A stretch of DNA of 63,336 nucleotides, the filler included, from Chrysochromulina tobinii (lineage: Eukaryota): NCBI GenBank assembly GCA_001275005.1. It is 5 parts of 5 records of this genome, joined end to end, with 100 filler letters (N's around TTAATTAATTAA, not from the genome) between each part and the next. Parts side by side here need not be neighbours in the genome. Positions count along the whole stretch, not along the records: positions 1 to 18,756 come from JWZX01000738.1; positions 18,857 to 30,068 come from JWZX01000742.1; positions 30,169 to 40,842 come from JWZX01000743.1; positions 40,943 to 57,280 come from JWZX01000744.1; 1 more part is not named here. One strand, written 5' to 3'. The translations under genes were made by a program, and so were the position numbers. Positions 14,091-54,200 of the stretch are shown here, one piece after another (the stretch's first letter is position 1; each line of letters starts with the position of its first letter). The notes beneath the pieces were generated by a model. It had not been told where the DNA came from. It did not search any database and saw only the letters and a list, made by a program, of their open reading frames with translations.

Positions 14091-16218
14091 ATGGGCTGCG
14101 CCCAGGCGCGTCTCAAAACCAAGGTCGACGTGCGCGACCTGGAGTCGATTGTGCGCACGGGCGACCTCATTCTCTTCTCGTCCAAGCACGCTGCAGCGCA
14201 GGTGACCAAGTGCTTCACGGCGTCGACTTGGGATCACTGCGGCATGGTGGTCAAGTTCTCGTCGCGGCATGTCTTCATCCTCGAGTACGCAGGCGGTGTC
14301 TTCCTCTACCCGCTCTTTACACGGCTCTACACGTACTACGCCATCCAGGGCCGGGAGATCGTGCTGCGGAGGCTGCTACCCGGGCAGGACCGCGTCGAGA
14401 TGCAGAGGCGCGTCGAATCCTTCGTGCGCGGAGTGCTTGGGCAGAAGCCGCCGTCGATCGAGGAGATCCTCCTCGCCGTCCTGAAGCAAGAGGGCGTGGT
14501 CTCCTCGTTCCTCGCACGCCTCGCGGGCACCAACGAAAAGGAGCACGTGGACAACCTCGAGACCCTCTTCTGCTCAAAGCTGATCGCGTGCGTGTACAAG
14601 GAGGTTGGCATCCTAGGTAAGCACCGCAAGTCGTCGGACTTTCTGCCCAAGCACTTTGCGGAGGAGTACGACGAGTACCTCGACCTGCAGGCGGGCGCGC
14701 TGCTCGGCCCCGGGCTGCCCATCAATTTCATGAGCGTCGCAGAGGAGGTTGAGAACATCCGTCAGCGGATAGTCGAAGAGGAGCGTAAGAAGCCCGAGGC
14801 GATCGTGCGGGCCGTGTCGCAGTTCTACGTGGCGGCGCGCTCGGGCGTCGGAGGGCTCGGCGACGAGATCTCGCGCTCATTCCGCAATCTCGAGCGCGGC
14901 TTGCATGGCTGGTCCGAGGCAGCCCTGATTGCCTATGATTGCCTATGATTGCCTAGGATTGCTTAGGATTGCTTAGGATTGCTTATGATTGCTTATGATT
15001 GCCTACCTATAATTGCATGGCTGGTGTGAGGCAGCCCTGATTGCCTATGATTGCCATTCGCCCTGAGAACCCTGAGCCCGGAGTGCCAGTAGCCCTGATT
15101 GCCACTCATGACGGATGGCCTCTGATGGCCACTGATGAGCGCTGATTGCCACTCATGACGGATGGCCTCTGATGGCCACTGATGAGCGCTGATTGCCACT
15201 CATGACGGATGGCCACTCATGACGGATGGCCGCTGACGAGCGCTGATTGCCCCTCTCATCAGGTCCGAAGCGGCCGAGCTCGCACTTTCACGCACCTCGA
15301 GCTTCGCCAAGTTCGAGCAGCCCTTGATGGCAGAGGCTCCCGAAGCAGAGGCTCCCACAAGTGGGCGCCGTCGTGGGCGCGCCATCGCCCCGAACGGCAC
15401 CGCACAGGACGACAGCGCCCACGACGGCGCTGATGCTCACGACGGCGCTCCGACTCACGACGACGCCCACGACGGCGCGACAGCTCACGACGGCGCCCAC
15501 GACGGGTCGAGTCCACCCCTCCGCGGTGAGGAAGCCGCCGAGCTAGCTGAAGCGCGAGCGGCCGCCATGGACGACTCTCAGGCGAGGGAGCGCTTCGCCC
15601 GAGCCCAATCGCAGAGTCAGCGCGGCGCACATGCTGCACAAGGGTCAAGTCGGTACGATCGGCCGCCCGAGCGCCTGCCCAACGATGAGACACAGTTGGC
15701 CAACAATGGTGGTTACAACGCGTCTCAAGTGGCAGTGGCGCTCGATGACGACGTGGCGGCAGCGCGTGCGAACGGAGCGTTGACGCCGCTGCGGCGCAAC
15801 AGCAGCAGCGTGGCCTTCGATCTGTCGCGCGTCGGCAGCAGCGGAGGGCTGCGCTTGCAAGGGGGAGCTCTCGTCGACGAGGTGAAGGATGTGTCGCCGT
15901 GGTTCCACTCCCTCCTAATTGCCTCCGGATTGCCTCCTAATTGCCTCCGGATTGCCTCCTAATTGCCTCCGGATTGCCTCCTAATTGCCTCCGGATTGCC
16001 TCCTAATTGCCTCCGGATTGCCTCCGGATTGCCTCCTAATTGCCTCCGGATTGCCTCCTAATTGCCTCCGGATTGCCTCCTAATTGCCTCCGGATTGCCT
16101 CCGAATTGCCTCCTAATTGCCTCCTAATTGCCTCCAGGTGGAGAATGTGTCGGATGGCGGCGTGTACGCTCCAAGCGCCCTCAACGGCTACAGCCCGCCT
16201 TCGGCTCCACCTTCGGTT

Positions 16219-16249
<31 letters not shown>

Positions 16250-16293
16250 ACCAGGAGGTACCGAGGAAGAGCCTGCTGAGTGCCTTCCAATGA
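14091..16293 (+). CDS. Permuted papain-like amidase (YaeF/YiiX, NlpC/P60 superfamily), 3 exons
   Basis: RTGDLILFS...WDHCGMVV (His) precedes LFCSKLIACVY (Cys), then DFLPKHF. Starts MGC. Introns 14912-15262 and 15882-16137 give an in-frame low-complexity C-terminus ending TGA 16293. Confidence 0.8.
14925..15250 (+). repeat. Intronic tandem repeats (GATTGCCTAT/GATTGCTTAG)n plus longer CTGAT-containing units
   Basis: Directly visible arrays inside intron 14912-15262, which ends CCTCTCATCAG. Confidence 0.9.
15911..16135 (+). repeat. Intronic 22-nt tandem repeat (CTCCTAATTGCCTCCGGATTGC)n
   Basis: About ten units directly upstream of acceptor CCTCCAG at 16137. Confidence 0.95.
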
Positions 16294-17016
16294 GCGACTA
16301 CGGTGTGCATCTGAGCGAGTACGGTTTGCATCTGCATGTGACAAGAAGCGGACTTGAGGTAACATCGACGAGGGTACAGTTCTCGGCCCCCCCGGCGTAC
16401 CGCCGCCCTGGAAGCGGAACGCGAACCCGGGAGCCTAGGGTAAGGTCACGGGCGAGCGGTGTGGGTGGCCCGGGGTGGTCGCGCCCCTTGGCGTCCGGTG
16501 TGGGTGGCCCGAGGCTCCCCCGGCCCGTCGGCGGAGCGCCGCGATCTACTACGCTACTACCGGTACCAACTGAGGCCTTACGAGGCCCGCCCACGGCGTG
16601 CGGCTGCGGGCGGTCCGGTCACGTGTGGAGACACCGGGTTCAACGGTACATTCTACATACGCATACGGCGATACGGGCGATAACCGGCGCGCGAACGTAC
16701 CCGGGGTTACCGCGACGTCCGCGTGGGCCCACTGGCGTGGTTGGTCCGAGGTAATACGCGATAGTCCGAGGACCAGGACGGATCATGTCGGGGCGCAGCG
16801 CGGAGCGGGGAGCGCGCCCGGGGTCGTCCCCCGCCGCCGCCCGCGCCCGGGGACGGTACGCGTTCATACGCGCGGAGTCCGCGGACCGCCGGACGCGATT
16901 AATACACGACAGATTACACAATACACATGAGATTACAGCGTGGGTACGCGCGGTGATCTAATCGAATAATCAGCTTGGTCTCAGCTACTTTGAACTCGAA
17001 ACGGTCAGTACACGTG

Positions 17017-17773
17017 CTAACTCGTAACTGCACCCTGCTCGCTGCTGGGGCCGGGCTCTGCTAAATCGCCGCGACGTTCGAGCCACCTTAACTCGTAGAA
17101 CTCCTCATAACTGCTGCCAGCTGCAGCAGCTGCTGCTGCTGCGCGTCTGCGAGGGGAATCACATCAGCTGTGAATGCTCTCACGTAAGCAGCGCTCTCAC
17201 TGCACCTTCCCGATGAGCGGATCGGCCGCACGCACGACCAGCAGCTGGTCGTAGATACCCACGCCTATGGGCGTCTTGCTGCCCGGGATGGGCAGCGGCT
17301 TCGTGCCGAGCGCCGACGCGCCACCACCAGGCGCCATGTTGGCCGTTTTGCGATAGGAGGCCGTGCCAAAGTGTGGACTACACACAGAGAGAGTCGATCG
17401 CACGCATGTAAGCACGGTCATCGAGGGCCGCGGGGCGCGCTGGAGGAGAAGGCTGTACGCACATGAACTGCGCTGCCTGCTCGCCCATGTTTTTACCAGT
17501 GTGCTCCGGCCGGACGCGCGGGAATGTGCCACCATAGCCGACGAGTGGCGGCGGCAGTGAGTGCCGCTCCCTTGGCGGTACCCACGGATCGTCCATTTTG
17601 ACAAGGCCATGTGTGTCACGGCCGCGGATCGCTTCCTCGAATAGCGGGCCTGGGACGATAGAGGCTGGCCGCCGGCCGACGCGATCATGCTGTCTGATGC
17701 GATCGCGCGTGAGCTCAGTGGCTTGAGAAGTCGGCTCGTTGAAGATCGTTGTCCACAAGACGTTGCCGCTCAT
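17017..17773 (-). CDS. Hypothetical protein with a P-x-x-GYGGxxP motif (possible ciliary microtubule-inner-protein type); multi-exon
   Basis: ATG 17773; MSGNVLW...PLVGYGGTFPRVRPEHTGKN. Continues through two probable short introns (~17380-17405 and ~17147-17200) to TAG 17017; splice sites uncertain. Confidence 0.45.
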
Positions 17774-17969
17774 GGCTGCCGGACCGCCACTGCGCTGCGA
17801 TCGAGGCCTGTGCTTGCGGAACCGACTCTCGAGCAAGACGAGTTCCTGCGACCGTTGAGTCGTTCCAACAGCTCAAACCCCGCGCCGCTCGCCTTCTCCC
17901 CCCCAGCCTTTTTGGGAAGTGTGTCGGTCGACTTGACGCCAGACCCCCTGCCCTCCTGGCAACCCGGCC

Positions 17970-18569
17970 ATGCCCTCGGCCAGGCAGCCGCCGTGGATGC
18001 AGGAGCCCGCCGACGACGAGGACGGGGACGACGACGTCGACGAGCTCGATCCCATTGGGCGTAACACGCTCAAGCTGCGGAGCCGCTCCATCGTGGAGTC
18101 GATTGCGGTCGGGGCATCACCGCCAAAGTTGCCCCCTTCCAATTATTCAGGCCAACTATCGGCGCGCGGAGCGGGCGAGAATGTGTACAGGAGCAACGCC
18201 TATGCGCAGCAGCCCGCGCCCGGGGGCTTCTCAGCAGAGGCCGCCCGCTTTATGCCGGCAACGCCGCAGCCCTACCATCCACAGCATCCACCGCCTTACC
18301 CGCGGCCATCCGCGTATCCAACTGCGCAGTCGAGCTTAGGTGGAGGGCAGCACCCGCCGCCGTTGCAGCAGCAGCAACTACCCTCCATGGGGCAGAAGCG
18401 GTGGGAGATTAATGATACTATGATGCATCAGTCTTGGGGTACGCACGGCTTCGCCCCTTTCCTGTCCAACGGCCGCCCGAGCAGCACTTTGCATGCACGT
18501 AGCGCAAGCGCTCTCCCCTCACGTGTTGCACGCTTCCCGCCGGCGCAGGTACGGTGCTGCGCACGCTGA
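17970..18569 (+). CDS. Hypothetical Pro/Gln-rich protein, probably 3'-partial
   Basis: 199-aa ORF with a donor-like CAG|GTACGG near 18549 just before the contig end. Confidence 0.45.
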   Translation: MPSARQPPWMQEPADDEDGDDDVDELDPIGRNTLKLRSRSIVESIAVGASPPKLPPSNYSGQLSARGAGENVYRSNAYAQQPAPGGFSAEAARFMPATPQPYHPQHPPPYPRPSAYPTAQSSLGGGQHPPPLQQQQLPSMGQKRWEINDTMMHQSWGTHGFAPFLSNGRPSSTLHARSASALPSRVARFPPAQVRCCAR

Positions 18570-18756
18570 ATAGGAGCTGATGAGGAGGCCTACCGCATGC
18601 TCGCGCATTACCCAACGTCTTAACGCCCGAAATACGAACCGCGCATGATCTCGATCTGTGGGCATGTCTGCATGGGCCTTTAGGCCGGGCCAGAGTGACG
18701 TCTGACGAAGATGTCACAGGATCCAGGATGATCCATACTAAATGTAACCCGCCCGC

Positions 18757-18856
18757 NNNNNNNNNNNNNNNNNNNNNNNNNNNNNNNNNNNNNNNNNNNN
18801 TTAATTAATTAANNNNNNNNNNNNNNNNNNNNNNNNNNNNNNNNNNNNNNNNNNNN
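18757..18856. other. Artificial contig spacer
   Basis: N44-TTAATTAATTAA-N44, which places stop codons in all six frames. Confidence 0.99.
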
Positions 18857-19130
18857 ATGGAGATGTGTGTCTCCGTGTGCTCTGTAGGTTCGCTTTCTGG
18901 AAAACTCTCTTCAGCAACGCGCTCTTCTCTGCTCTGCTCTCTCACCCAAGCCCCTTGGAACGAGTGTGCTTTCCTTTCATGTCCTTTGAGAAACTCGAAC
19001 GCTATGACCAACGTCTGCCGCCGTGACGGGCTTCTTGTTTCGTCGACTGATGTTTCTTTTTCGCTTTGCGTTGACACTCTCGGGGAGAAACAGTACCGTC
19101 TCTTCTCTTTGACCCGGCACACTCAAGCTG

Positions 19131-19809
19131 TTGCTGTTGGATTTCATGGTCCTCGATGTCCCAGGTGGTGACAGTGCTGAAGGAATGGCCATCGTCGAGC
19201 GTGCCAACGTGATGAAGGCTGCCGGGAGCTACGGTGCCACCTCTGAGTTCCTCGCGCCGAAGCCAAGCTTCTTCAACATCCTCTACACGCACCCCAAATT
19301 CGGAGCGAGTGCGTACCTCGCCTTGCAGCGCGGCGCCTGAGCGCGCCGCCGACTCCACTGTTTGCGCCTCACTCGCGTTGGCACCCTCTGTTTGCTGCTG
19401 TGCCGTCGCAGTGCCGCAGTGGGGTGAGGTGCAACATCGCATCAAGTACACCGAGCCCATCGCGCTGCTGCCGAATTTGAATAGCGTGAAGGGTGCTGCG
19501 ATCGACCCTGCGCTGCGCCGTGCTACGCGCGTACCGTGGGGGCAGGGGCAGTCGTCCTCCGCCTTCCTGCCCCTGCATCTGACACAGCTGCCGAGCAGCC
19601 CGCTTGGCAAGCACCCTGCGCCGACGCCCGAAATGCCAGTGGTGGACAACTACTCAGCTTTAGGCAAGGTGCCGTACCATCAGAGCGCACCAGAGAGCCT
19701 CAATCCATGGGTGCGCAACCCGCCGCACAGAGCGAGCACGCGCCAGATCTACGAGCGGTTGTACGGACCGGAGAAAAAGGTGCCCCAAAAGTCCAAGGGT
19801 GTGCTGTGA
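19131..19809 (+). CDS. 3' exons of a hypothetical gene truncated by the contig start
   Basis: Two coding-like segments (LLDFMVLDVPGG...HPKFG; WGEVQHRIKY...KSKGVL*) separated by a probable intron ending GTGCCGCAG near 19419. Confidence 0.5.
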
Positions 19810-20203
19810 CACTGTGTCACCGGCGTCTCCACCGTCGTCGACATACTGCTATGACGTGGGTAATGTCGTGTGAAGGCAACACATACTGTACAAGTACTAT
19901 ACTCGAAAAATACATATGATGCAGGTATTAATGTCTTTCTATCATCTTAAACGGCATCCGGCCATCGGGCGATGGGGCCAATTTAAGATATGGAGTGTGG
20001 ATGTTCGCAGTGCGAAACATGTGTGTTTCCGGGGTTTGTCCGATGCGTTTAAGTACATGTGACGAGGGAGACAACTTTGCGTCGACGCGAAATGACATGC
20101 CTCATCAAGACGAAAGTCGCCGACCGCGAGAGTCTCCTGGGTGGACGGATCGCTATAGGCGTCCTTTCCGCTGACGCGATTCTTCCTCACCAGTGCGGCG
20201 CTG

Positions 20204-23200
20204 ATGAAGCGCCACGAGCCGTGGGAATGGGACAGCGATCCAACCACCGAGGAGCTCCCCATGTCATTTAACGTCCACCGAGCGTCTCCCGCCGCTGCAT
20301 GCAAAGAGCCCCCTGCGGCCACTCTGCAGCATGGTGCTTATGGCCGCCGCGAGAGTGCCGCGCGCGCCAACGCGTCACGCCCACTGCTCTCCTCGCTGCC
20401 CTCCTCTCATCCACCGCCGTCCCAGTCGAGCGACTCGCCACCAAGCAAGATGAAGGTAGCGCGCCCTCCGCTTGCCTGGGAGATGGAGCCCCCGCCGTCT
20501 AGGCGGCCACGGACTCGCGCCCTGGGGAGTGACGCGCTCAGTGAGCCTCTGCTGCTCCCTCTTCTCTCCGCATCGATGCATGCAACGCCTGTGACGACGC
20601 CGGACGCGGAGGCGGCCAGCGAGGGCGTGCGGGAGTACCGGCTGGGGCCCGAACAACCTCCCACCGCGACGAAGATAACGCCGATGCCGACGGCAGCGAC
20701 GCCGGCCGCGGCGGCAAGATCGGTGCATGCATCGCCCGCGACGACGACGCCCGCTCGCGCTGGGGACGCGCTGTTCTCATGGGCGTCGTCATGTGCTCCG
20801 GCCCCGGTCTCTCCCAAATTAGGGTCGGTCTCTCCGGCCTGTGAAGTCAGCTTCCGATCTGTGAAGTCAGCTCCGGCCCCGGTCTCGTTGGCCTCGTCGT
20901 CGTCCTACAACTTCTCTTCGACCTCTGTCTCCCCTGGCGACCCCTTCTCCCCGACTTGCCCAACGCCGCGCCCGTGGCGTGACGCATGCTCGATGTCGGG
21001 ACGGATGCATGCTCGAGAAGGCCTCGACGAAACCGTGCAGCATGCATGCTCGACGTCGGGACGGATGCATGCCCGAGAAGGCCTCGACGAAACCGTGCAG
21101 CATGCATGCTCGACGTCGGGACGGATGCATGCTCGAGAAGGCCTCGACGAAACCGTGCAGCATGCAATGCAGATCGCCATGCGCGAGGCCGCAAGCGCCA
21201 AACCGCGCCGACAGCGCCCGGCGCCTCCTCCGAACCTCGACGAAACCGTCCAGGCCGCGATGCATGCGGCGCCTCCTCCGAACCTCGACGAAACCGTCCA
21301 GGCCGCGATGCATGCGGCGCCTCCTCCGAACCTCGACGAAACCGTCCAGGCCGCGATGCATGCGGCGCCTCCTCCGAACCTCGACGAAACCGTCCAGGCC
21401 GCGATGCATGCGGCGCCTCCTCCGGACCTCATAGACTTATTGGCATCCCCTGACCTCCTGCCGAAGTTGGGTGCGTCGGTACCCGACGCCTTTGCAGAGC
21501 TCCTCCTCTTCCCACAGCTACCGCCCACGACGGCGCTCAAGTCCAAGCCGCCGTCGCTCCCTTCCAAATTAGGAAGCGACGCAAGCATGAATGCGACCTC
21601 GAGGCGATCTGTGAAGTCAGATTCCACTGTGAAGTCAGCTTCCACTGTGAAGGGGTCGCCTCTGAGGGCAGCTGTCGCCGCAGGACGCGCCGACGCGAGC
21701 GCCGCCTCGCCCACGGCAGCGCCTACGTCCACGACGGTGCTACCCTTCTTCGATTTGCTGCGCCTGGACGGTGAGCAGACGATCCCGTCGTACGAAGCGC
21801 CGAGCGCGCCCGATACGGCGCTCGAGGTGCCGCCGCCGCCGCCGCCGCCCGCCCGCCCATCGGCGACTCCGATGGCCAATCTCGCGCCCGATCTCGCGCC
21901 CGATCTGGCGTCCAATCTCGCGTCAAATCTCGCGTCCGATCTCGCGTGCGATCTCCCGTGGAGCTCGACGCAGGCCGAGGCGCCTTCGGGCGTCGTGGCG
22001 GGCGCCTCGCCAGCTTCCGTAGCCTCCGCGGCCACGGCAGCCGCGGCATCCCTGGGCGTCGTGGCGGGCGCCTCGGCATCCCTGGCAACCTTGGCGACCC
22101 TCCGGCTGCCCCCCGAGATGCACGACGAGATCCGGCTGCCCCCCGAGGATGACACCGACACCGAGAGCGCCGACTTGAGCGGCGACGAGTGGTCGGCGCT
22201 GTCCGAGGCGGGCGCTGAGAGCGGCTTCGACTCCGCGGCAGAGGACTCGAGCTCCCGAATCTCCATCGTCGGAGATGCCATCTCGCGCCGTCTGGACGCG
22301 AGCGCCGTCTCGAGCGCTCGAGCGCCGTCTCGAGCGCCGATCTCGCCCGAGTGGGGGGCGGCGTCCGGCGACTCGTTTTGCTCCGAGGGCTCGTGGCAGA
22401 GCGCCAAGCAGATGTGCGCGCAGGAGTCGACTCATTTTAGGCACGAGGCCGAGGCGAGCCATGTTAGGCAGGTGAAGGTGGTCGCTCAACTCGGCGCTCC
22501 CGTCGTCTGCCCAACGGCCGCGCTCAACTCGGCGCGCGATCGCCCGGCACGGCGCGGCGAGGTTCGTCACGAGGCTCGTTCGGACGACGAGGACGCTGAT
22601 GACATTGATGACGAGACCGAGCTGTGGAAGGGCGCGCTGCGTGCCGAGTTGAGCCCTTCACACCGTCGCCACGTCCGCACCCCCGAGGTCAGCCCTTCGC
22701 CTCGTCGCCACCTTCGCACGCCCTCGGCTGAGGACGAGGAGTTGCCTAATATGGACGAGGTGGATGAGCGATGCCCTCGCTCGATGCCCTCGCTCCCGTT
22801 TGCGGCGTGTGCGCCCACGTACCTGCGCTCGACGCTCGGCACGGCGCTCGGTTCACAGTCGCATTCACAGCGGGACACGCGCGCGGCAGGCGGCGGTGCC
22901 CGATACGACGCGGCGCACGTGGGGGCGGAGGGTGTGAACGCCCGATACGGCGCTGCGGCGCGCGCCGAGGAGCCCGATCTCGTGGATGAGGAGATCGAGA
23001 TGGTCGAGATCCCCTCGGCTGACGAAGCTGACGAAGCCGTGGATGAGAGCGAGTTTTGGCTCGTCGAGGGTCTGATGGAGTGGCGAGGGGGGTCCATCTC
23101 CGCGCTCGAGGTGGCCGAGATCGCGATCGAGATTGCGCGGCAGGCGCGGCGGGCGCGGCAGGCGCGGCGGGCGGCGGTGCAGCTGGGAGCTCGCGAAGGC

Positions 23201-26200
23201 GCTCAGTACGACGCTCTCAAAGGCGCTCAGTACGACGCTCGCGATGGCGCGGCAGCTGCGAGGGAAGTCGACGGCGAGGAGGAGTTGCCTAATATGGACG
23301 ACGAGGACTGCCCCGAGGCCCAGGGGCAGCTTCGAGCGCTTGTGTGCGCGACGGCCCACTTGTCGCCGCCCGAGAGCGTCGTACTGAGCGTGATGGACCC
23401 CCCGCCGCCGCCTCCGCGGCACTCCTCCACCTCTCCATCGTCGTCGTCGTCATCATCATCATCATCAACCGCCTCAAAAGCTGCCTCCACAGCGCCGTAT
23501 CGGGCGTTCACACCCTCCGCCTCAAAAGCAGCCTCCACAGCGGACGATGGATTGGTGGGGGTGCTCCGGCTTGGACGGATCGAATGCCCTTTGTATGGAC
23601 GCAAGACGCCCGTCCTTCATGTTCAGGGTGCCGAGCTGCCTAATATGGACACCGAGCTGCCTAAAATGGACGCCGAGCTTCCTAATATGGACGCAGTCAC
23701 GGCTGAAGGCGCTGAGGCTCACCAAGGTCGCGGGGCGTCCTATTACGTCCTGCCGACGAGCGACGGCAGCCTCGTCTGCTTCACACTCGCGCCCGGGACG
23801 GCGCCGGCGGCTTGCGCGGCGCTGTACTGAGCGGCTCGGCTCGAACCTGAGTGCCACTCTGATAGCGCCTGATTGCGCCTGATTGCGCCTGATGAGCTCC
23901 TTCATCAGGTACAAGTGGCTGGGCTCGCGCGCCACCCTTATGTCATGGTCCATCCCGCTGTGGGAAGATGAGAGCATGCTCACCGCGCCGCCCGTGCAGG
24001 TGAATGCGCCTGAGTGCACCTGATTGCAACCTGAGTGCTCCTGAGTGCACCATGATGACCTCTGATGGCACCAGTGATTGACGATGAATCGACCTGTCAC
24101 TGACGACCTCTGATGACCTCAGATGACCTCAGATGACCTCTGATGACCTCTGATGACCTATGATGACCTCTGATGGCCCCAGCAATTGACGAATCGGCCC
24201 GTCACAGATGGTGGAGGCCGGCCCGCGTCTCGTCAATGCCATCCACTCGTCATCACGCGCCCTGCAGCACGTGATGCTCGGGACGGCGCGCGCGGTCGCC
24301 CTCTCATGCTCGGTCCTCTCGTATGGCGCGCACAAGCTGCAGGCGGCACAGGCGCGCCGTGCCGAGCGCCCGCCGCCGCCGCTGCCGCCGCGCCAGCCGC
24401 GCCAGCCGCTCCTGCCGCAGCTCGTTGATGAGGAGCGCCATCAGCCGCAGCTCGTTGATGAGGAGCGTCATCAACCAAACGGCCACGCGGCGTCCGAGGG
24501 CGCGCCCATCACGGCGCCTGCGGCTGCGGAGCTCCTCCGCGCTTCGTCAAAAGAGGACGGCGGCGCCTCCGCATCGCCCGCGACGGCGCCCGCGTCTCCA
24601 GGCAGACTGAAAGCGAAAGGGAGCGATGGCGGCGGCGGGAGTTGCGGCAAGGGCGCTCAGATTCGTCAAGGGCTCGAGAGGACGCGTGTATACCTGCAGC
24701 ACGTGGCACTCGTGTCGGATTGCATCGGGCGCTCGGTGCTGCACGGGGGCAAGCATGTACTCCGGTAATGGCCACTAATGACCTCTGATGACCACTAATG
24801 ACCTCTGAGTACCTCTGATTACCTCTGAATAACTTCTGAGGGCCTGCCTGATTGCGTCCCTCATCAGGTACACTGCGCACGCCGCCTCCCACGCGGCCCT
24901 CGCGATGGTGCCCGCGGGGGCGCCCGAGACGGCGCTCGGCCAGATCTGGCGAGATCGCATCTCGTCGCCGCTCCGAGGCAGCTCGGCGCGAGCTGCCGGT
25001 TTCGTCAGACGCTCGGGGGCGGTCGACGTCCTCAGCCACGGAGGTGCGCTTGATGGCGCTTGATGATCACCTCTCAGATCACACCTCGGACTGCCTTTTC
25101 ACACCTCGGACTGCCTTTTCACACCTCGGAATGACTCTTCACACCTCGGAATGACTCTTCACACCTCGGAATGACTCTTCACACCTCGGACTGCCTCTGA
25201 CGACGTCTGCGTAGCCTCTTCACACCTTGCCTGTTCACACAGGGCGGGCCCTCGTTGCCGCGGCCGACACGGCAGTCGTCGCGCGCAGCCTCATGTACAG
25301 CTCCGTCCGGCAGGTGCGATCTCCCTTGATTGTCCTTGATTGTCCTTGATGGCACTCGTCGCGCGCAGCCTCATGTACAGCTCCGTTCGGCAGGCAACCT
25401 CCGACCTCACGAGCGCCGTCTTGGGCGCGGACGCGGGCTCGGTGGTGGCCGAAGGGCTCGACACGATCGTCGCGGCCCAGGCGAGCCGCTCTCGCCTCGA
25501 ACCTAAGATGGACCCTGCCTTGCATGTATGTGCTCACCACGGCGCCCTCTCCCCTCGTTGCGTCGCACACACAGGCGACGCTCTCGTCTGTCACGTGCAC
25601 CGGCGTCGGATGGCTCCTGCAGGCGAGTTCTGAGTACCTCTGAGTACTTCTGATGACCTCTGATGACCTCTGATGACCTCTGATGACCTCTGATGAACTC
25701 TGATGACCTCTGATGAACTCTGATGACCTCTGATGAACTCTGATGACCTCTGATTGCAGGCGAGCTCCTCCGCGTCGCTCGCCAATAATCTTCTCTACGT
25801 GGGCATCAAGAGAGGCTCGACCGAGGCCGTCGTTCGTCACTTCGGACCGGCCCTTGGTGCGGTCACAGTGGAGGGCTTGGATAGCCTCTCGATGCATGGA
25901 CTCTCTACCCATGGGCTCTCACAGCTGCCTCTCTCCTCGGTGCGTGGCTGATTGCCTCTGATGACCTCTGATGACCTCTCTCCTCGGTGCGTGGCTGATG
26001 GCCTCTGATGACGTCCCTCATCAGGTCTCATCGGTAGGCTGGGCCCTCTCCGGATGCCACGTGGCCGACCAGCTGATTGCCTCTGATGACGTCCCTCATC
26101 AGGTCTCATCGGTAGGCTGGGCCCTCTCCGGATGCCACGTGGCCGACCAGCGTCGCATCCTCTCAACCACCGTCAGCCATCGGCACGAGCCGCCCATAAT

Positions 26201-27427
26201 AGGCAACTCGCCCCCCATAATAGGCAACTCGCCCTCCATTTTAGGCAACTCGCCTGCAGAGCCAAACCAGACAGCATCACCAGCGGCAGCGGCGGCATCA
26301 CCAGCGGCGGCAGCACCAGCGGCAGCAGCTGCGGCAGCACCGGCGGCGGCGGAGGCGAAGGCGGCGGCGACGGCGGAAGAAGAGGAGGACGAGAAGGACG
26401 AATGGATACTACTTGGTTCGCATTGATGAGCTCTGATGAGCTCTGATGACCACTGATGAGCTCTGATGAGCTCTGATTGCCTCTGATGGGCTCTGATTGC
26501 CTCTGATGAGCTCTGATAACCTCTGATGAGCTCTGATGAGCTCTGATTGCCTCATCAGGTTCGCCCTGGCTCGAAGGGTTCATCGCCCTGATGAGCTCTG
26601 ATGAGCTCTGATTGCCTCATCAGGATCGCCCTGGCTCGAAGGGTTCATCGCCATTCAGCCCATGGAGACCGGTACGACGCCCGGCACGACGCGCCAGGCA
26701 GTGGGCGGCTGGCGACGGGTGTGGTGCGTGCTCCAAGACAGCGCCATCTCCTTTTTTGGGCACGAGCGAGCCGCCCTCGATGGGGTCGTCGAGCCGATCG
26801 AAACCATCGAATGGCTTCATCTCCGTGCCATCACCCTCCGCCCGGTCGCGCCCAACACGGCGCCCAAGCCGGCGCCCGACACGGCGCCCGGCGCCGCGCC
26901 CGGCACGGCGGCGCGTGAGCACGGGTGCACGTTTGAGATACAGCTTGGCGCGCATGCAAGTGCTCAACACGGCGCACGTGAGCACGGGTGCACGTTTGAG
27001 ATACAGCTTGGCGCCGGCCGTTCGATTGCGATGCGGGTTGAGACGGCAGCACAGCGCGCGCTATGGGTACGCATCCTCGCTGACAATGACCTCTGATGAC
27101 CTTGTGATGACCTTCTGATGAGCTTCTGATGAGCTTCTGATGACCTCTGATGGCCTCTGATTGCAGGCGCGCAGTGGGTACGCGAGCTGCTCCGCCTTGC
27201 CTCGTGGCGCGCATGCAAGCGCTCACCACGGCGCGTCCACTACCCCCTCCCTCTCCCCACAGGTACGCGAGCTGCTCCGCCTCGCCTCGTGGCGCGCGGT
27301 GCACTCGCTGCAGCTCGCGCTCGCACGGGGCTCTTCCACAGAGTGGCAGCCGGTCCATGTGCTCGATACGGCGCGGGCGCCGCGGGACGCGCCACCCGCC
27401 TCGAATCCCCCAGCGGCGCGGGACTAG
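20204..27427 (+). CDS. Large multi-exon protein: low-complexity N-terminus, senescence/spartin-like region, C-terminal PH domain
   Basis: 1208-aa first exon, then introns including 23824-23908, 24000-24207, 24765-24867, 25314-25393, 25481-25759, 27067-27262. PH: WLEGFI...GWRRVWCVLQDSAISFF...FEIQL...RVETAAQRALW|VREL. Senescence-like: SVRQATSDLTSAVLGADAGSVVAEGLDTI (tentative). Confidence 0.65.
20985..21430 (+). repeat. Coding minisatellites: 60-nt x3 (HACSTSGRMHAREGLDETVQ) then 48-nt x4+ (AAPPPNLDETVQAAMH)
   Basis: Directly visible; both arrays share the core CCTCGACGAAACCGT (LDETVQ). Confidence 0.95.
23860..27165 (+). repeat. Series of intronic decamer arrays (GATGACCTCT, GATGAGCTCT, GCGCCTGATT, GATTGCCTCT)n and a 21-mer (CACACCTCGGA...)n
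   Basis: Arrays at ~23860-23895, 24055-24175, 24770-24850, 25080-25195, 25630-25755, 25950-25975, 26425-26555, 27090-27165; each lies in an intron, typically ending CTCATCAG or GATTGCAG. Confidence 0.9.
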
Positions 27428-27737
27428 TGGCCTTGCATGCAAGTTTGGGGAAGCTCGAGGAGATCAGCGCGTGTGATGACTCGACTGATGGGATTGGTCA
27501 TCAAAACGTCATCTCGTCGTCATCTCGACGTCACCTCTCCTGTGACGCGCTACCTAATTCCTGATACGAAATCCTAAGTAGGATTGCCGCGTGCCGGTGG
27601 CGTGTTGCACACGTGCCTCGGGGCCCTCGGCCACGGCGCGCCGCCGGATGAGACTTCGCTTGAGAATGAGAGGCGCCAGCGCGTCCTCTGAGATGCAGGC
27701 TGTTTTGTGTTTAACGTCTGGGATCGGCAGGTCGTGC

Positions 27738-27992
27738 CTTAAGCCCGGAGGGGGCGACTTAAGCCGCGCCGGTACTTAAGTCGGGACACCGCGACTTAAG
27801 CGTGAACAATCTCCTTTAAGTCACGCGTGCTCCGACTTAAGTCGCCCATGAAGTCGCCGGGGCCGACTTAATATGATCGGTGCACACGGGCCGACTTAAC
27901 TCTTTTAAGTCGGCCCCCGGCGACTTAAGTCTTAACTCTTAAGTCCGAAAGTCGAGGCCGCCCCCAGCTCATTAAGTTATATAAGTCGGCCC
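27738..27992. repeat. Palindromic GACTTAAGTC-rich element (possible MITE/foldback)
   Basis: 13 TTAA tetramers in ~250 bp; perfect 12-bp stem GGGCCGACTTAA (27888-27899)/TTAAGTCGGCCC (27905-27916). Confidence 0.7.
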
Positions 27993-28404
27993 GGTGATAT
28001 TACTGTGCGTGTTCGCAGTATAAGGAGCGACCCCGAATATGATCGCCGATGGTCGGATGCACGTTTGCGATCCGCATGCTCATGCGCTATCCTACGCCGG
28101 CTCTGCAACGGCCAACGCGACGCGACACTCGAATACTCGCATCCCGAAAGCGGCCCCACCTGTATGTGCGTGCGGTGGGCGCCCTCTCGTGCGAGGCCGT
28201 GTGTGGCGCTACCGGGGAGCGCGTGCTCGCGACGCCTGTGTCCCGCTGTCCGTTGGAGAGACCGAGCCCACGCCGCCGCGCGGGGCAACCCCGATGAGTC
28301 GGTCGCGGCTGATGCCTCCGGGGCATCGCACGGCGCGCGGCGCGAACACGCCAGAGAGAGATGTGGGGCCTGTGGTCTTCCGCGCAGCGCGCTCCAGTGC
28401 CGGC

Positions 28405-29930
28405 CTATGCGCGGGTGACTTGAGTGTGCTCGCTGAAGGCCGATGGGTCGACGACGGTCGCTGATGGGATCGTGATCGACGCGAGAGAGGTGCAGTCGTA
28501 AAAGGCGTCGTAACCAATCTGCATCACCGACTCGGGGATCGTGATCGACGCGAGCAAGGTGCAGCCGAGAAAGGCTTGCTCACCTATCTGCGTCACCGAC
28601 GCGGGGAGCGTGATCGATGCGAGCGAGGTGCAGCCGAGAAAGGCTAGCTCACCAATCTGCGTCACCGACACGGGGAGCGTGATCGACGCGAGCGAGGTGC
28701 AGCCGTGAAAGGCGTACCCACCAATTTGTGTCACTGACTCGGGGATCGTGATCGACGCGAGCGAGGTGCAGCCCTGAAAGGCAGCCACACCAATCTGCGT
28801 CACCGACGCGGGGAGCGTGATCGACGCGAGCGAGCGGCAGCCCCAAAAGGCCCACGTGCCAATCTGCGTCACCGACGAGGGGAGCGTGATCGACGCGAGC
28901 GAGGTGCAGCCGTAAAAGGCGCTCTCACCAATCTGCGTCACCGACGAGGGGAGCGTGATCGACGCGAGCGAGGCGCAGCCGCGAAAGGCGTCCTTACCAA
29001 TCTGCGTCACCGACGCGGGGAGGTTCGCGACCGACTTGAGCGACTCGCAGTCTCCCATCTTGAGCTCTCGCAGCGCCGTCAGCCTCGCCACAGACGCCGG
29101 CAGCGCCTCCCCCTTCCACTTCTTCCCGCTCAGATTCAGCCCGCGCACGCGCGCCCCTCCTCCTTGTCCGCCGTGAGCGCCCTGCCGAGCCCGTCCCGGC
29201 CGCCCTCCACCCCCGCCGCCCACTCGGGATCCTCCAGGATCCACGCGTCCTCAGACGCCCCGATGAGCTCCACGTCCGTCGCCCCGATGAGCTCCAGAGC
29301 CGTAAAGGTGACTTGAGTGTGCTTGTCGAAGGCGCATGGGTGGACGAGGTTCGCCGATGGGATCGTGATCGACGAAAGCGAGGTGCAGACCTTAAAGGCG
29401 TCCGGACCAATCTGCGTCACCGACTCGGGGATCGTGATCGATGCGAGCGAGGTGCAGCCGTAAAAGGCGCGCTCACCAATCTCCGTCACCGACGCGGGGA
29501 GCGTGATCAACGAAAGCGAGGTGCAGTCGTAAAAGGCATGCCCACCAATTTGCGTCACCGACTCGGGGAGCGTGATCGACGCGAGCGAGGTGCAGCCCTG
29601 AAAGGCAGCCACACCAATCTGCGTCACCGACGCGGGGAGCGTGATCGACGCGAGCGAGGTGCAGCCGAGAAAGGATTGCCCACCAATCTGCGTCACCGAC
29701 GCAGGGAGAGTGATCGACGCGAGCGAGCGGCAGCCGAGAAAGGCTTGCCCACCAATCTGCGCCACCGTCGCGGGGAGCGTGATCGTCGTCAAAGATTTGT
29801 AACTTAACGAGCTACCCTCCCAATTGGCGGGACCGTGCACAAACAGGACCTGACACAGTTCGACGAGTGGATTCGGCGGGGGCACTGAGGGACAAAAGCA
29901 CCGCAACATGAACTTGCATGCATGCAACAA
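28405..29930 (-). CDS. BspA-type (TpLRR/LRR_5) leucine-rich repeat protein; two repeat blocks split by a frameshift at ~29154-29157; probably 5'-partial
   Basis: 23-aa repeats LASITLPASVTQIGxxAFxGCTS in ORFs 29136-29930 and 28405-29244. One extra G in the GGGG run would join ...ADKEEG to ARVRGLNLSGK...LPASVARLTALREL. Confidence 0.85.
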
Positions 29931-30068
29931 ATAGACTTTTCGGCCAACGTTCTCGCAGGCGCGTGTGAGAGGTGCAGCGTGTGCAAGGGGCTGGGAGAGC
30001 CCCTTGGCGTGTGTGAGGAAGGCGAGTACATCATTTTGAGCGCGGATATGTGCTCACGCGCCTACACC

Positions 30069-40842: not shown

Positions 40843-40942
40843 NNNNNNNNNNNNNNNNNNNNNNNNNNNNNNNNNNNNNNNNNNNNTTAATTAATTAANN
40901 NNNNNNNNNNNNNNNNNNNNNNNNNNNNNNNNNNNNNNNNNN
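40843..40942. other. Artificial contig spacer
   Basis: N44-TTAATTAATTAA-N44. Confidence 0.99.
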
Positions 40943-44099: not shown

Positions 44100-44140
<41 letters not shown>

Positions 44141-46228: not shown

Positions 46229-46636
46229 TGTCGTGTGGTCTACGTGTGGTAGTAGGACAATATTGTCCTAGGCTGTCCAGAATGGTCCCCTGTAGTAGTA
46301 GGAAGGCCAGAAGCGGCGCAAGAGGGGCTGAGGCGTCTCAAAGAATATGAGCTGCCATAGGTGCTCCAGCACCCAAGGCACCTGCTCCTCGTGATTTCAG
46401 CACGCCGGCGTGTGAAAATAGGACGGAGACAGGACATGTGAACAAACCCCGTTTTATGGTGTGAACAGACAATGAAAAATAACCATTGCAGCCTGTGAAA
46501 ACCAAAACGTGTGGGCCGGGCCGGTGATGACACGGCGGCGATCACGTTTGGAGCATTGGAGCAGGCAACAGCGGTTGGACGGCGGCCTATAGGTACGGTT
46601 CGCGCGGCCTCGCCTCTACCATCTCACCCTCAGACC

Positions 46637-47977: not shown

Positions 47978-48115
47978 TGCTGCCGACACTGCCCCCACCC
48001 ACCAGCACCAGTCGCACCGCGTGCTCCCGCCAAACCCACGAAGTTTTCGGGCTGTGAAAGCTGGGAGTGAACTGTGAAGACAATTTTAGACGTTGGAAAA
48101 CAACCCCGCCTGATC

Positions 48116-49036
48116 TTAACGCTCATCGTCGTCAATCACACCAACCAGCACCGGCATGCCCAGGATGACGACGATGATCAGGATCACGCTCGCTACCCAG
48201 CAAGTGAACTCGCGCTTGCGCCTCTTGTAGTCGTTGGCCCGGCGCAGCTCCTCGAGGGCGCCGCCCGTGTTGATGACGCTGTGGCCCACGGCGTGCTCGA
48301 TCTGGTTGAGCAGCTCGCCTTGCGCCTCGACGAGCACGGACACATCCAAGAAGAGTTGGTGCAGCTCGTTGATCGAGGTCTCGAGCCGCAGCAGGTCTTT
48401 GTGCCGGTCCTGGATGTCGGCGAGCGCGTTGCGCACGGCCGTCTGGCCGGCGATCTGCTGCGAGAACAGGTCTGCCTGCGGATTCTCGACGATCACCTGC
48501 ACCTCCTCCTTGGTCGCCGTCGGATTGATAATGCGGTACTGGCGCTCCATGCGCTCCCGGTACTTGGTCTTGTAGCGCGTCTGCAGGTCCTGGTAATCGG
48601 CCATCAATTCGACAAATTTGCGCGTGAGCGAGCCATGCATGTTGGTGCGTATGCGCGACTCCGTCGCGCCTTCGGTCGTCGACTTGTACCGTGCCGCGTG
48701 CTCCTTGTTGGCCTCATCCAACTCCTTGAGCCGATCGCGGACCTGAGCGACGATCCTGTTGGTCGCCTGCGTCAGCTCCTCGAGCTGGTTCGACCACCGA
48801 CGGCTCTGATCGGTGGACATAGCAGTCAAGTTCTCGTTGTGCGACTCCTCCATCAGTCGCACGTTATTGCGCATCAGCTCCATGCTTTGCTTAATCTCCT
48901 GCACCTCTGCGAAGAAGTCCTGCATGATAACTGGGCCGGCCGCGGTAGCAGATGAGGAGGATCCAGCTGCGGCGCTGCTGATAGCCGCGCTGGCGGTCGA
49001 CGAACTGCCGATAAGATCCGAAAGCCGGTCATTCAT
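48116..49036 (-). CDS. Plasma-membrane-type syntaxin (Qa-SNARE, Stx1/SYP1-like)
   Basis: MNDRLSDL N-peptide, MQDFFAEVQEIK Habc region, IQDRHKDLLRLETSINELHQLFLDVSVLVEAQGELLNQIE SNARE motif, C-terminal TM. Confidence 0.95.
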   Translation of the reverse strand: MNDRLSDLIGSSSTASAAISSAAAGSSSSATAAGPVIMQDFFAEVQEIKQSMELMRNNVRLMEESHNENLTAMSTDQSRRWSNQLEELTQATNRIVAQVRDRLKELDEANKEHAARYKSTTEGATESRIRTNMHGSLTRKFVELMADYQDLQTRYKTKYRERMERQYRIINPTATKEEVQVIVENPQADLFSQQIAGQTAVRNALADIQDRHKDLLRLETSINELHQLFLDVSVLVEAQGELLNQIEHAVGHSVINTGGALEELRRANDYKRRKREFTCWVASVILIIVVILGMPVLVGVIDDDER

Positions 49037-49433
49037 GGCGCGTAGTGGCTTGTAAGCCGGCGGGCTTATCATTCAAGGCGTTCGACTCCGCGGTTGGAGA
49101 AATGTGTGAATTGGCTGTTAAAATAGAGTCCGAGAAAAGGGCAGCCGCGGCGCGCGCACCATATTTGGACTTACGCGACAGAGCCGACACACGCGCCCGC
49201 ACCCCCCCAAGAAACAACTAACAACATATGCCAGTACTGCACGGAACAGCCGTTTAGAACAAAAATGTGCCACCGGCACCGCGTAAAGCCGTAAACTATA
49301 CTCGCCGCGCCACCGCGTGCCGCACCCGCAGCAACGATGGTCGCGATGCTCTATCCCAACGAAAGTGCCCGCTCGCGGCCGCCGCGCGTGGGCCTCACCA
49401 TGGCGGCTCACGACCTTGCAGGCTCGTCAAGGC

Positions 49434-51113
49434 TTAGGACTTGCAGACGCGCAAGTCGTATCTGGCCGCTTTCGACGCGTCTCCGAGGTCTAAGGTTTGC
49501 AGCGCCAAGAGCTCCGTGCGCTTGCGAGCAGCCTCCTCTGCCGCACGGCGCTGCTCCTCCTCCGCACGGCGCTGCTCGGGGGTTAGCTCGGGCTCAGCGG
49601 CCGCGGAGCTGATGCCACGGCCGCGCGCGGAGCCCGTCGAGGCCGACTGAGCGCGCTGGACCATCGCGTGAACCCGCTCCTTGACCTTTTCGAAGCGGTG
49701 CACATTGGCCGTCCACCAACGGGCGGCGTCGAGGTCACTCATGAGCTTAGTGTCGAAGAGGATAGCCTGCGCCTCGGAGACCTTCGCGTGCGCCACCCGC
49801 CCCATGAGCAAGGTCACGCCGCGCTCGCCCGTCTCAGCGTCCTTGACTCGGAATTCCGCTGAGACGCGTCCGTCGAACATCTCGGACTCGAGAACGCGGA
49901 AGAGCTTCTTGCCGGGGAACATGGGCCACACCTCGAGGCCCTTGTCGCCAAAGGCGTCGCGGATCTCGAGCGTCTCCGAGTGCATTTTGGCCTGCGCGTC
50001 CACCTGCTCCTTCTGCTCCTTGTATCTCAGCTCCATCTCAACTGCACGCTGGTGTGCCTCCGCCGCGCGCGCGTCCGCCGCGGCGCGCTGCTCCTCCGCC
50101 TTGGCCTTGGCGATGGCGAGTGCCTCGGCCTTGGCGCGCTCCTCGAGCAGCTTGGACTCCGCCTGGTCGCGCCGCTCGCGCTCTCCCTCCATCTGCTCCT
50201 TGAGATCGCTCTTCCAAGTCTCTTCGGCTTTGACTCGCTCGCGTTTCATCACGCTCTCCACATGCGCCCACTGCTTGCTTGCCTTGACCACCTTTGCAGG
50301 GGCCGCCTCGGCCTCGCGCTCGCGATCCTCCTTCTCGAGGCGCAACTTCTCGCGGTTGGCCGCCGCCTTGGCCGCCCACTGCATCTGGCGCTCGAAGATG
50401 CCCGCTGTCACAGCAGTCACCGCGCTCACCGGGCGCGGCGCGGTCTCCTTGTCAGGTGCGCCAGCCACCGCCTCCGCGCCGCTCGCCGTGGTGGCCGGAG
50501 CGCCAGCGGTGGCCTCGGCAGTCGTCATGGTTGCAGCAACTCTGTTGGCGCGGGCCGACACGGGCGCCGTGATAAAGCACGTGCTCGAAGCGTCGGCTAC
50601 CGCTGGCGTCGGCGCTGCCGCCAGCTGCTTGAGAATGACGTCGTCCTTGGCCTTCTCGGCAGCAGCGACGGCGGCGGCGGCCTTGCTGGTCTTCTTGGGT
50701 CTCACCTCCGCCTGCACTCCGCAGTCGACCATCAGCGGCTTGGGCTTCTCGGGCGGCGAGAAGCGAGCTCGGATATCGCGCAGGACCGAGCTGCGGATGG
50801 CTGCCTTATCGCAACGCACGATGCGCTCGACGGTGGTAGTCATAGCGTCGCAAATCATGGCAGAGAGCTCTTCGCGTTTGGCCGCCTTGAGCGCCAGGTC
50901 GATCGAGCCGGTCGACGACTCGGTCGACGCGGCGTTCAGAGCCGAGAAGGAGAAGAACAACTTTGTCACTGTCGCGTTCAGCGTTTTGACGAGCGCCTTG
51001 ACGGCGATCGTCTGGTCGTCCTGCTTCTCCTTGGGGGCAGGGACCTTGACGGCGGAGTTGCCGGCGCTGCTCGCGAACGGGGCGCCGATGCTGGGCAGGG
51101 CGACGTCTGTCAT
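49434..51113 (-). CDS. Coiled-coil hypothetical protein with a small globular C-terminal domain
   Basis: ~560-aa ORF; E/K/R/A-rich coiled coil followed by FRVKDAETGERGVTLLMGRV...EAQAILFDTKLMSDLDAARWW. Confidence 0.7.
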   Translation of the reverse strand: MTDVALPSIGAPFASSAGNSAVKVPAPKEKQDDQTIAVKALVKTLNATVTKLFFSFSALNAASTESSTGSIDLALKAAKREELSAMICDAMTTTVERIVRCDKAAIRSSVLRDIRARFSPPEKPKPLMVDCGVQAEVRPKKTSKAAAAVAAAEKAKDDVILKQLAAAPTPAVADASSTCFITAPVSARANRVAATMTTAEATAGAPATTASGAEAVAGAPDKETAPRPVSAVTAVTAGIFERQMQWAAKAAANREKLRLEKEDREREAEAAPAKVVKASKQWAHVESVMKRERVKAEETWKSDLKEQMEGERERRDQAESKLLEERAKAEALAIAKAKAEEQRAAADARAAEAHQRAVEMELRYKEQKEQVDAQAKMHSETLEIRDAFGDKGLEVWPMFPGKKLFRVLESEMFDGRVSAEFRVKDAETGERGVTLLMGRVAHAKVSEAQAILFDTKLMSDLDAARWWTANVHRFEKVKERVHAMVQRAQSASTGSARGRGISSAAAEPELTPEQRRAEEEQRRAAEEAARKRTELLALQTLDLGDASKAARYDLRVCKS

Positions 51114-51244
51114 CGGGAAGGCAGTTGGTCCGTCCGACGACAACTCCGCTGCGAGCCCTCTTTTTTCTCATTCGCCATTCACGCGCTTCCGGTGAGGGTC
51201 CTTCCTCGGTTCGGCGAGAGCTCCTCTCTTGCCGGCCGCGAAAC

Positions 51245-54200
51245 ATGGCGTCGCGCCCATCTGGCGCTCCATCAGCGGACCGCGAGGCGGGGCCCACGAC
51301 GGAGCCCAAGCCCAGGGGCCCACCTGGCATGCAATTCGTGCCACTGCCCGTGCCGATCGCCGCCACGCTTCCGCCGCCATCGAGCATAGAGCCTCTGCTC
51401 CCTACGCCGAGCTCCAGCGAGCGGGAGCAGATGCTCTTCGAGGCGCAGGAGCGACGCCGGGCGCTCGCGGAAGCCGGGCAGGTGCTCAATCGAGTCGTGT
51501 ACGACTCGATGGTCTTCGTGCCCGCCTCCGTGGAAAAGGTGCCTGGCGGCGCGCTGCTCTTCGAGTCGCGCTTTGAGAGCGGCAACCTGCGGCGTGCGGT
51601 GCATGTCAACGGTAACGAGTACGACCTGCTGCTTAACTGGGATCACGGCACGCGCGGTCACACGCAGTGGTACTATTTCTGCGCCTCCGGCGCCAAGGTG
51701 GGCGAGACGTACAGGTTCAACATCGTCAACTTTTGCAAGTCGCAGTCGCTGTGCGCTGCCGCCCGCCGCCACCCGCTTCGTCCATGCGCATGCCGACCCG
51801 CGTGCGAAGCCGCGCCAGCCAGCTGCGCACCTGCTCTGACGCTCTCACTGAGCTCTGACGTGCCGCCGGCCCGACTCCGTTGAGTGCCGCGTTGTGGCAG
51901 GTACAAGAATGGCATGCGCCCTCTCCTGTACTCGACCCAAGCGGCCGCCAAGCTCGGGCACGGCTGGACACGAAGCGGGCACGAAGTGCTGTACTACGAG
52001 AACGGCGTGATCCGGCGCGACCGCGGCGACGGCAAGACCAACCCGAATGCGCAGCACTCGACCCTCTCTTTCAGCTGGACGGCAGAGTATACGGGCGACC
52101 TCATCTACTTTGCGATGTGTTACCCTTACTCTTACACGGAGCTACGCTCTTACCTGGCGCGCATTCAGGCGGAGCCACTGCGAGCACGGCACGTCCGGCG
52201 GCAGCGACTTGCGCTGACCATTGCCGGCAACGAGTGCGAGATGCTCTGGGTGACCGACCACTCCTCTCCTGCTGAAGCGGTCAACGCGCGCCCGGTCGTC
52301 GCCCTCTCAGCGCGCGTGCACCCAGGCGAGTCGAACGCGTCGTGGATGATGCAGGGGGTGCGCCCGCTCCCGCCCACCCCCCCTCCCCCCACGCCCCCTA
52401 GCCCCTCATGCGCGTGCGCCCGCCAAGCCCGCGCCCCCCGTCCCGCGCCGCGATTGCGCCTCCGCCCACCATGATCAAACGAGCGCATCCACTCACTTTT
52501 CGCACCTCGTGGACGCGCCCACCACGACGCGCCATGCCGCGTGAGTGCAGATCATCGATTTTCTTACGGGCCGCTCGGCGGAGGCGGACGCGCTGCGCCG
52601 GCACTGCCTCTTCCTGATCGTGCCGATGCTCAACCCAGGTGGCTACGTGACCTCTGATGACCTCTGATGACCTCTGATTGCCTCTGATTGCCTCTGATTG
52701 CCTCTGATTGCCTCTGATTGCAAGCTCGTGCCGATGCTCAACCCAGATGGCGTCATCTGCGGCAACTACCGCTGCTCGCTCGCGGCCGTCGACCTGAACC
52801 GTCGATGGGCTCGTCCCTCGGCCAAGCTGCACCCGACGATCCATGCGCTCAAGAAGCTGCTGCTGCGGCTGCACGTGCGCCAGCCGATCGCCATGTTCGT
52901 CGACCTGCATGGGCATTCGCGAAAGCAACGCGTCTTCATGTACGGCTGCGATGAGTCGATCACGGCCGCGGCTGCCGCCGGCGGGTATGGGCCTACAATC
53001 GGCCTCAACGGCAAGCTCGGCCGCGTGCCTGCGTTGCTGCAGCAAGTCTTTCCACTCCTGTGCTCGCGCACCTGTACCACCACGAAGCGCGAGACGGGCG
53101 GGCAGGGCTCCGACAACTTCTTCTCGTTCAGCAGCTGCAGCTACATCATCAAGAAGTCGAAGGAGTCGACGGGGCGGGTAGTGGTGCATCGGGAGCTACA
53201 GCTCCTCACCTCGTACACGATGGAGGCCTCTTTTTGCGGCTGCGACGACCGGCGGCGCGCGCGCGCCGCCGAGCTCGACAGCGACGAGGACGAGGACGAG
53301 GCGCCCGCGTCTGCACCCGCGTCTGCGCCCGCGTCTGCGCCCGCGTCTGCGCCAGCTGACGAGAGCGCCCGCGACAGCGCCAAACCCAATGGCGGCGGCT
53401 TCCATTTCTCAACGGCGCACCTGCAGCAGATTGGGTGCCGCTTCTGCCGTGCGCTGCATGGGTACTTTGGACTGGGCGCGCCGCCCACGGCAGAGGAGTC
53501 CGCGCGGATCGACAAGGCGACCATCGACGCCATCGAGGGCGTCAAAGCCCTCCCGTCCAACGTGGCGATCCACCAGACGCTCATCGACCTCATGTCGGGC
53601 GAGTTCGACGCCGGAGCCGACGGCGACACAGAGGGCTCCGACGGCGGCGAGGGCTCTGACGACGAGAGCAAGAAATTGGCGGCGAGTATAGAAAACGGCG
53701 GCACCGCGCCCGTCGCGACCGGCGCCGCCCCGCCGGCCGACGGCACGAAACTACGCGTCGCCGCGCCCCCAAACGGCGGCGCCGCGCCCGCCTTCGTTAC
53801 AAAGGTTGGGCCCACCCCTTCGCCGACGAATAAGGACAAGATTGACAAGGTGGCGAGGAACTCTATCTCGACGCGTCGCACTCGCGAGCAAGAGATGCGC
53901 GCGGCGGCGCAGCGCGCCGAGGCGGCCGCGGCGGCCGCGGCTGCGCTGCTGGGCCATCGGCCCGACCTTCTCGGCGGCGCGACGCTGCCGCTGCCTCGGC
54001 CGCTTGTTGGGCTGGCCGCCCACCACTTTGCGGCTCGCGAGCAGTTTGGGCGTGACGACCTGCGTGGGTCGGATGCAGGGGGCAGCCGCCTTGCAGCAGC
54101 AGCCGCACTTGCAGAATCTTCACTCGATCGGCTTCCAGCAGCAGCCCCATTTGCAGCCGCAGCTGCCGCAGCCGCCGCAACCATCCTCCGGCTTCCAGCA

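Follow-up and report, generated by a model that had tools for sequence, protein, structure and literature searches.

The window analyzed here, a 63,336-nucleotide (nt) stretch of DNA made up of five contigs of the freshwater alga Chrysochromulina tobinii joined by N spacers, holds evidence of real and ongoing intron gain by duplicating insertions. This gain is partly demonstrated: one new intron, in a cytosolic carboxypeptidase (CCP) gene, is supported, one further case may be either a gain or a renewal, and the rest are secondary or old. The intron boundaries that carry copies of neighboring exon ends, which a preliminary description had gathered under one explanation, are heterogeneous and not one single phenomenon. 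As described there, they lie on three of the contigs, in the following genes.

14091-16300: gene A, with a weak C92 match below the cut-off
20200-27424: gene B, PH-domain-like
Gene C: cytosolic carboxypeptidase (CCP, M14), carrying intron 52639-52746

Junction copies in the window

By sequence similarity, the contigs appear Chrysochromulina-like: one open reading frame (ORF) of the window falls into a 90% cluster with a Chrysochromulina parva gene model (P0200), and the top named homologues of two window genes are from the haptophytes Prymnesium parvum and Haptolina brevifila. P0200 joins gene A with a sigma-factor gene lying upstream and leaves out exon 16138-16258, and is likely a mis-model. 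Elsewhere in the window, we observed a large minus-strand gene at 1-7900 with helicase-like motifs recognized by eye, whose four candidate introns have neither junction repeats nor 10-mer filler; a 69-nt repeat array of about 14 copies at 28466-29785; and a minus-strand stretch at 57800-58250 that, judged by eye, resembles a Copia-type reverse transcriptase fragment.

Five copy pairs were confirmed at 52618 and 52726 (21/21 matches), 25276 and 25356 (37/38), 27178 and 27263 (34/35), 26561 and 26626 (27/27), and 26025 and 26103 (49/49), as were two donor-side mimics of the next exon start, at 14912 (11/13) and 15882 (13/15). A junction repeat score of at least 7 was reached by 7/20 introns, a set that includes the picks of the preliminary description and so gives no genome-wide rate, versus 4/380 cross-paired donor/acceptor controls (Fisher P = 7e-8). 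Thirteen of the 20 introns were delimited through transcript-derived proteins or a spliced contig and three by eye or RNA contig ends; the remaining four, on the minus strand, were delimited by reading frame only. One junction repeat had previously been overlooked:

25623-25759, + strand: GC-AG intron with a 10-nt junction repeat, at which relative P0246 breaks too

In gene B, GC-AG introns at 25481 and 25623 stand back to back.

Across ten events, the duplications are 14 to 49 nt long and the fillers between the copies 22 to 337 nt. Within the window, six fillers of 25 to 337 nt were compared with one another; their global identities were 0.07 to 0.57 and no terminal inverted repeat was found in them, so that for these six the proposed distinction from introner elements bearing such repeats appears to hold. 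Inverted repeats at the filler ends, a trait of many though not all introner families, measured 0 to 1 nt in 9/10 fillers and 8 nt in one. Older, shared introns keep decayed copies, and young introns near-perfect ones. Such intronic copies mislead gene callers, which started ORFs within a copy.

Two filler families recur in the window introns, one a 10-mer repeat and the second of about 23 nt; judged by its repeat unit, the filler is about half G+C. In DNA and RNA runs mapped to the window, summed contig depth on filler bins was thousands of times the single-copy level, which suggests that both families are abundant genome-wide (pile-up depth not being equal to copy number) and that templates are plentiful. 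Joints from reads or contigs over 18857-28400 were swamped by filler matches and were left out of the results, and run X22 and those runs that had almost no words in common with the window gave no information. Searches with the filler patterns found no match in viral contig and genome contig collections. Of the 54 loci that one metagenome scan returned, only three (L001, L002, and L037) are from C. tobinii itself, and none is DNA of close relatives. The acceptor end that introns of the 10-mer family have in common (26588-26623 and others) corresponds to one repeat variant in reverse complement, and the 8-nt inverted repeat there could reflect fold-back synthesis or element ends.

A recently gained intron in the CCP gene

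52639-52746, + strand: 108-nt GT-AG intron in the cytosolic carboxypeptidase (M14) gene, spliced in RNA contigs

This intron is built from a 26-nt duplication (52618-52643 and 52726-52751) flanking 82 nt of 10-mer filler. The exact 21-nt copy described earlier is present, but the real extent is 26 nt with one mismatch and reaches beyond the junction. The single mismatch is the donor G, which turns the exonic AG/AT (the slash marking the junction) into AG/GT. A freshwater-sample RNA contig (X17 record 7) joins 52617 to 52726, thus keeping one copy, and contig L037 has the same splice; 52639-52746 is the sole GT-AG reading compatible with the RNA contigs. Two contigs of DNA run X8 (51380-52647 and 52696-53300) span the two junctions at a depth of 47, equal to the flanking level, and L001 and L002, which may stem from the same culture, show no difference from the window over the intron. 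The locus is no assembly artifact. Near 54071, the CCP gene is frameshifted by a G that L001 and L002 do not have, an assembly error in the window.

The occurrence of the intron in relatives was read from predicted proteins, not from DNA. The sister lineage is a cluster of 12 ENA proteins from contigs of 3.9 to 60.8 kb, with 93.6 to 94.5% identity over about 1,125 residues (96.5% for one 170-residue member). Eleven of the 12 ORFs read through the CCP site unbroken, and as their first residues come from translation through the 3' end of the intron before the site, they look genomic; the 12th begins at the site and is hence uninformative, as are P0003, P0005, and P0134, which begin there as well. 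P0004 (74% identity over the first 185 residues) runs through the preceding intron and has no break at the CCP site. A recent gain in the lineage of the window is the simplest reading of these comparisons and is supported by them. The insert is in frame, yet contains stop codons, which makes it likely that the donor arrived with the insertion event. We also considered whether the intronic copy is the true exon and keeps an ancestral Lys (K-L-V); this was rejected, as transcripts and haptophyte homologues read F-L-I-V.

Intron 25314-25393 and an unspliced insertion in gene B

25314-25393, + strand: 80-nt GT-AG intron whose 3' end is a 38- to 43-nt copy of the upstream exon end
26914-27014, + strand: unspliced in-frame exonic insertion of 63 nt, in which 25 nt of second-family filler lies between the copies of a 38-nt duplication

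P0242 and P0224 have intron 25314-25393 spliced out, and P0241 and P0236 retain it; in P0241, all downstream introns are spliced. Sixteen proteins were retrieved for this site from the 50% representatives, and their states are mixed. P0243 has the same form as the window; P0244 (29/29 in the next exon) has both flanking introns and none at this site, and could be a partly spliced RNA. In P0245 and P0248 (29/29 and 28/29), a different insert occupies the site; it contains 10-mer filler together with a short copy of the exon end and, as deduced from the protein, reads as a mosaic in which filler is combined with copies of the downstream and the upstream exon. In P0256 (23/29), the site holds an intron whose translated start resembles that in the window, and the genomic-looking P0246 and P0252 (20/29 and 17/29) have none. 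The intron has a young 3' end, and both parallel gains and an older gain followed by loss and re-made 3' ends fit this pattern.

The exonic insertion at 26914, absent from the preliminary description, has a copy without AG/GT, and the spliced proteins P0237 and P0241 keep its 21 extra residues; on this ground, its reading as a GC-AG intron was rejected. An unspliced, in-frame insert of this kind implies that the insertion process needs no splice sites. Among 52 listed proteins that cover this site (for the two large clusters, 15/46 and 15/38 members were listed), 41 have no insert there, 4, with the window included, have the same one, and 7 have a different second-family insert, so that insertion recurs at this site. 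Near 24655 in gene B, other strains (P0222, P0223, P0226, and P0231) carry further in-frame exon duplications of the same event type, and in P0231 an exon-start copy lies ahead of 10-mer filler.

Older introns and secondary duplications

14912-15262, + strand: older 351-nt intron of gene A, in which a 13-nt copy of the next exon start has decayed
15882-16137, + strand: older 256-nt intron of gene A with a decayed 15- to 17-nt boundary copy
25940-26102, + strand: intron of gene B with a duplicated donor region (25928-25952 and 25975-25999) and a 78-nt tandem duplication of acceptor and exon start
26416-26623, + strand: older intron of gene B with a 65-nt tandem duplication of acceptor and exon start
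27067-27262, + strand: compound intron of gene B, with an old donor and 10-mer filler, a copy of the next exon start, and second-family filler

All seven other genomic ORFs run into intron 14912 (among the members listed, 15/97), as do all 13 into intron 15882 (15/44 listed). Both introns therefore look older and common to all listed relatives, which matches their decayed copies. Within intron 14912-15262, the region of its own donor is copied as well (about 14901-14945 and 15014-15058).

In gene B, the joins 25940-26102, 26416-26623, and 27067-27262 are transcript-derived. The copies at 26025-26151 and 26561-26652 are exact, as described, but belong to the 78- and 65-nt tandem duplications, which include the acceptor. 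RNA contigs begin on the second copy, at 26102 (X16 record 15) and at 27262. The segment 27178-27212 is a 34/35 copy of the next exon start followed by second-family filler, and a 15/17 copy of the donor region, read off the sequence, lies near 27168. Position 27178 does not start an intron, since 27067-27262 is the only GT-AG join that yields the transcript-derived protein. Among the relatives' ORFs listed, 21 open within an acceptor end resembling the one at 26558/26623, and 47 other genomic ORFs, with identities as low as about 80%, extend into the donor at 27067. As introns 26416-26623 and 27067-27262 are common to relatives, both predate the strains, and their copies are then later events, assuming that the relatives lack these copies, a point on which protein sequences are silent. 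None of the three copies at 26025, 26561, and 27178 is a gain; they are secondary duplications, and two of their host introns are common to relatives.

Taken together, the earlier proposal of young introns formed by duplication plus filler is supported for CCP and possible for 25314, and its extension to all cases as gains is not supported. The expectation that relatives lack the introns is borne out for CCP (11/12 sister ORFs), gives a mixed picture at 25314, and fails at 14912 and 15882, which are common to all relatives listed. Its second part, that boundaries are being renewed, fits 26025, 26561, and 27178, the last two in host introns shared down to about 80% identity.

Possible mechanism and alternative explanations

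The copy-filler-copy build, the splicing of two inserts, and the retention of a third in mRNA were observed directly, and sequence comparisons indicate that the CCP intron and the exonic insert are absent from close relatives. On balance, we favor as the probable explanation a splice-blind insertion, likely by error-prone break or fork repair with template switching, that places filler in the target and repeats 14 to 49 of its bases. Under this model, repair of a break or fork would place short repeat filler in genes, the same event would repeat 14 to 49 bases of the target around the filler, and the filler would derive from the two abundant intronic repeat families, whose ends are donor- and acceptor-like. 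Selection would then keep spliced-out inserts as new introns, in-frame inserts as exonic insertions, and inserts within existing introns as renewed or doubled splice sites, and the copies would decay with age. Duplication of an AG/GT proto-splice site, suggested earlier as the cause, does not fit, as the CCP target is AG/AT and an insert of the same build without splice sites stays in the mRNA. The variable lengths of duplications and fillers, the lack of shared ends, and the mosaic inserts fit template-switching repair better than a cut-and-paste element, and different inserts recur at two sites (25314 and 26914) in other strains. No repair enzyme or template locus behind the insertions was identified, and no junction microhomology was found for the two key introns against a library of only the 16 introns of this window, in which four positive values were circular.

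The sense orientation of all fillers seen would not be required by a repair process and would suit short nonautonomous mobile elements, introner-like and possibly of a retro type, whose repeats expand later; the two recognizable and very abundant filler families, the variable long duplications that retro-type target-primed insertion gives, and the introners reported from a Chrysochromulina metagenome-assembled genome (MAG) in the available part of PMC9860276 point the same way. Such elements nevertheless seem rather unlikely, as the fillers start and end at differing points and are not alike end to end, the duplications exceed the 3 to 9 bp of described introners, and several of the events simply duplicate, in tandem, sequence that spans a splice site already present. 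The intron of P0256 at the 25314 site, with its similar start, fits an old intron and speaks against the repair reading there; together with the intronless P0244 and the one-sided 25314 copy that ends at the junction, it would suit an aborted intron loss, in which one end of an old intron is rewritten by partial copying from an intronless template (cDNA or allele). Five of seven internal mismatches outside the CCP donor are silent and allele-like, which by a rough estimate is not significant. We regard aborted loss as improbable: the exonic insertion at 26914-27014 is beyond its reach, the copied CCP segment lies on either side of the junction, and the CCP intron is missing from P0004, a more distant relative, as well as from the sister lineage. 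Assembly artifacts at repeat-rich junctions are largely refuted and very improbable: at least one assembly error does occur in the window (a 1-nt insertion near 54071), and X8, L001, and L002 may share one culture, but both CCP junctions are crossed by DNA contigs, L001 and L002 match the window over the intron, and the exonic insert and the intronic copy are found in RNA-derived proteins and are shared by other strains (P0239 and P0243).

Beyond repair with template switching at these loci, we tentatively offer, as a possibility less likely than that reading itself, that introns breed introns without a transposon: repair might copy pieces of repeat-filled introns, splice signals included, into exon breaks, duplicating tens of target bases, in a process that would be ongoing in Chrysochromulina populations, would return repeatedly to the same sites, and would be missed by introner surveys that filter simple repeats.

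Comparison with known systems

For most intron gains, the source cannot be identified. In the window, a single small region combines a new gain, an unsuccessful one that the protein retains, variant inserts across strains, and decayed older cases; as the host can be cultured and many lake metagenomes are at hand for it, populations offer a test of rate, filler source, and mechanism. In the openly accessible Chrysochromulina and haptophyte literature searched, no title on such repeats was found, nor did a search there return papers linking new introns to microhomology and template switching; the available text of PMC4580454 gives about one intron per gene and holds nothing on them.

Introners resemble the present cases, according to the available parts of PMC9860276, 10.1101/2020.10.14.339549, and PMC12130899, in forming repeated intron families, in taking a splice site from the duplicated target, and in being absent from close orthologues. 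Their target duplications, where present, are 3 to 9 bp (4 bp in the Chrysochromulina MAG), and those of dinoflagellate introner classes 3 to 8 nt (10.1101/2020.10.14.339549, available part), whereas the fillers of the window have no fixed 3- to 9-bp duplication, no fixed ends, and no end-to-end similarity. As PMC12130899, in its available part, excluded families whose similarity came mainly from simple repeats, fillers such as these would likely be omitted from introner surveys.

Seven proposed routes of intron gain are reviewed in the available part of PMC3443670, with 188 gains by tandem duplication and 5 by break repair; with the 90 new Daphnia introns of PMC4202315, these figures indicate that the "few clear examples" mentioned in the preliminary description overstate the rarity. 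Like the AGGT tandem duplications reviewed there, 26025-26102 and 26559-26623 are GT...AG units from a duplicated AG/GT, but they adjoin an existing intron and interrupt no new position, and the CCP target is AG/AT and holds 82 nt of foreign filler.

The closest known system would appear to be the neointrons of Daphnia pulex, which the available part of PMC4202315 attributes to staggered double-strand-break repair, inferred from footprints as in the window. In both systems, the introns are spliced and missing from close relatives, a direct repeat of the exon end lies at the intron's opposite end, later secondary duplications occur within introns, and different inserts occur at one site. They differ in that the direct repeats are 4 to 12 bp in Daphnia and here 21 to 43 nt for exon-end repeats, with duplications of up to 26 to 49 nt, and in that the Daphnia inserts average 78% AT and are mostly of unknown source, whereas those in the window are drawn from genome-wide intronic repeat families.
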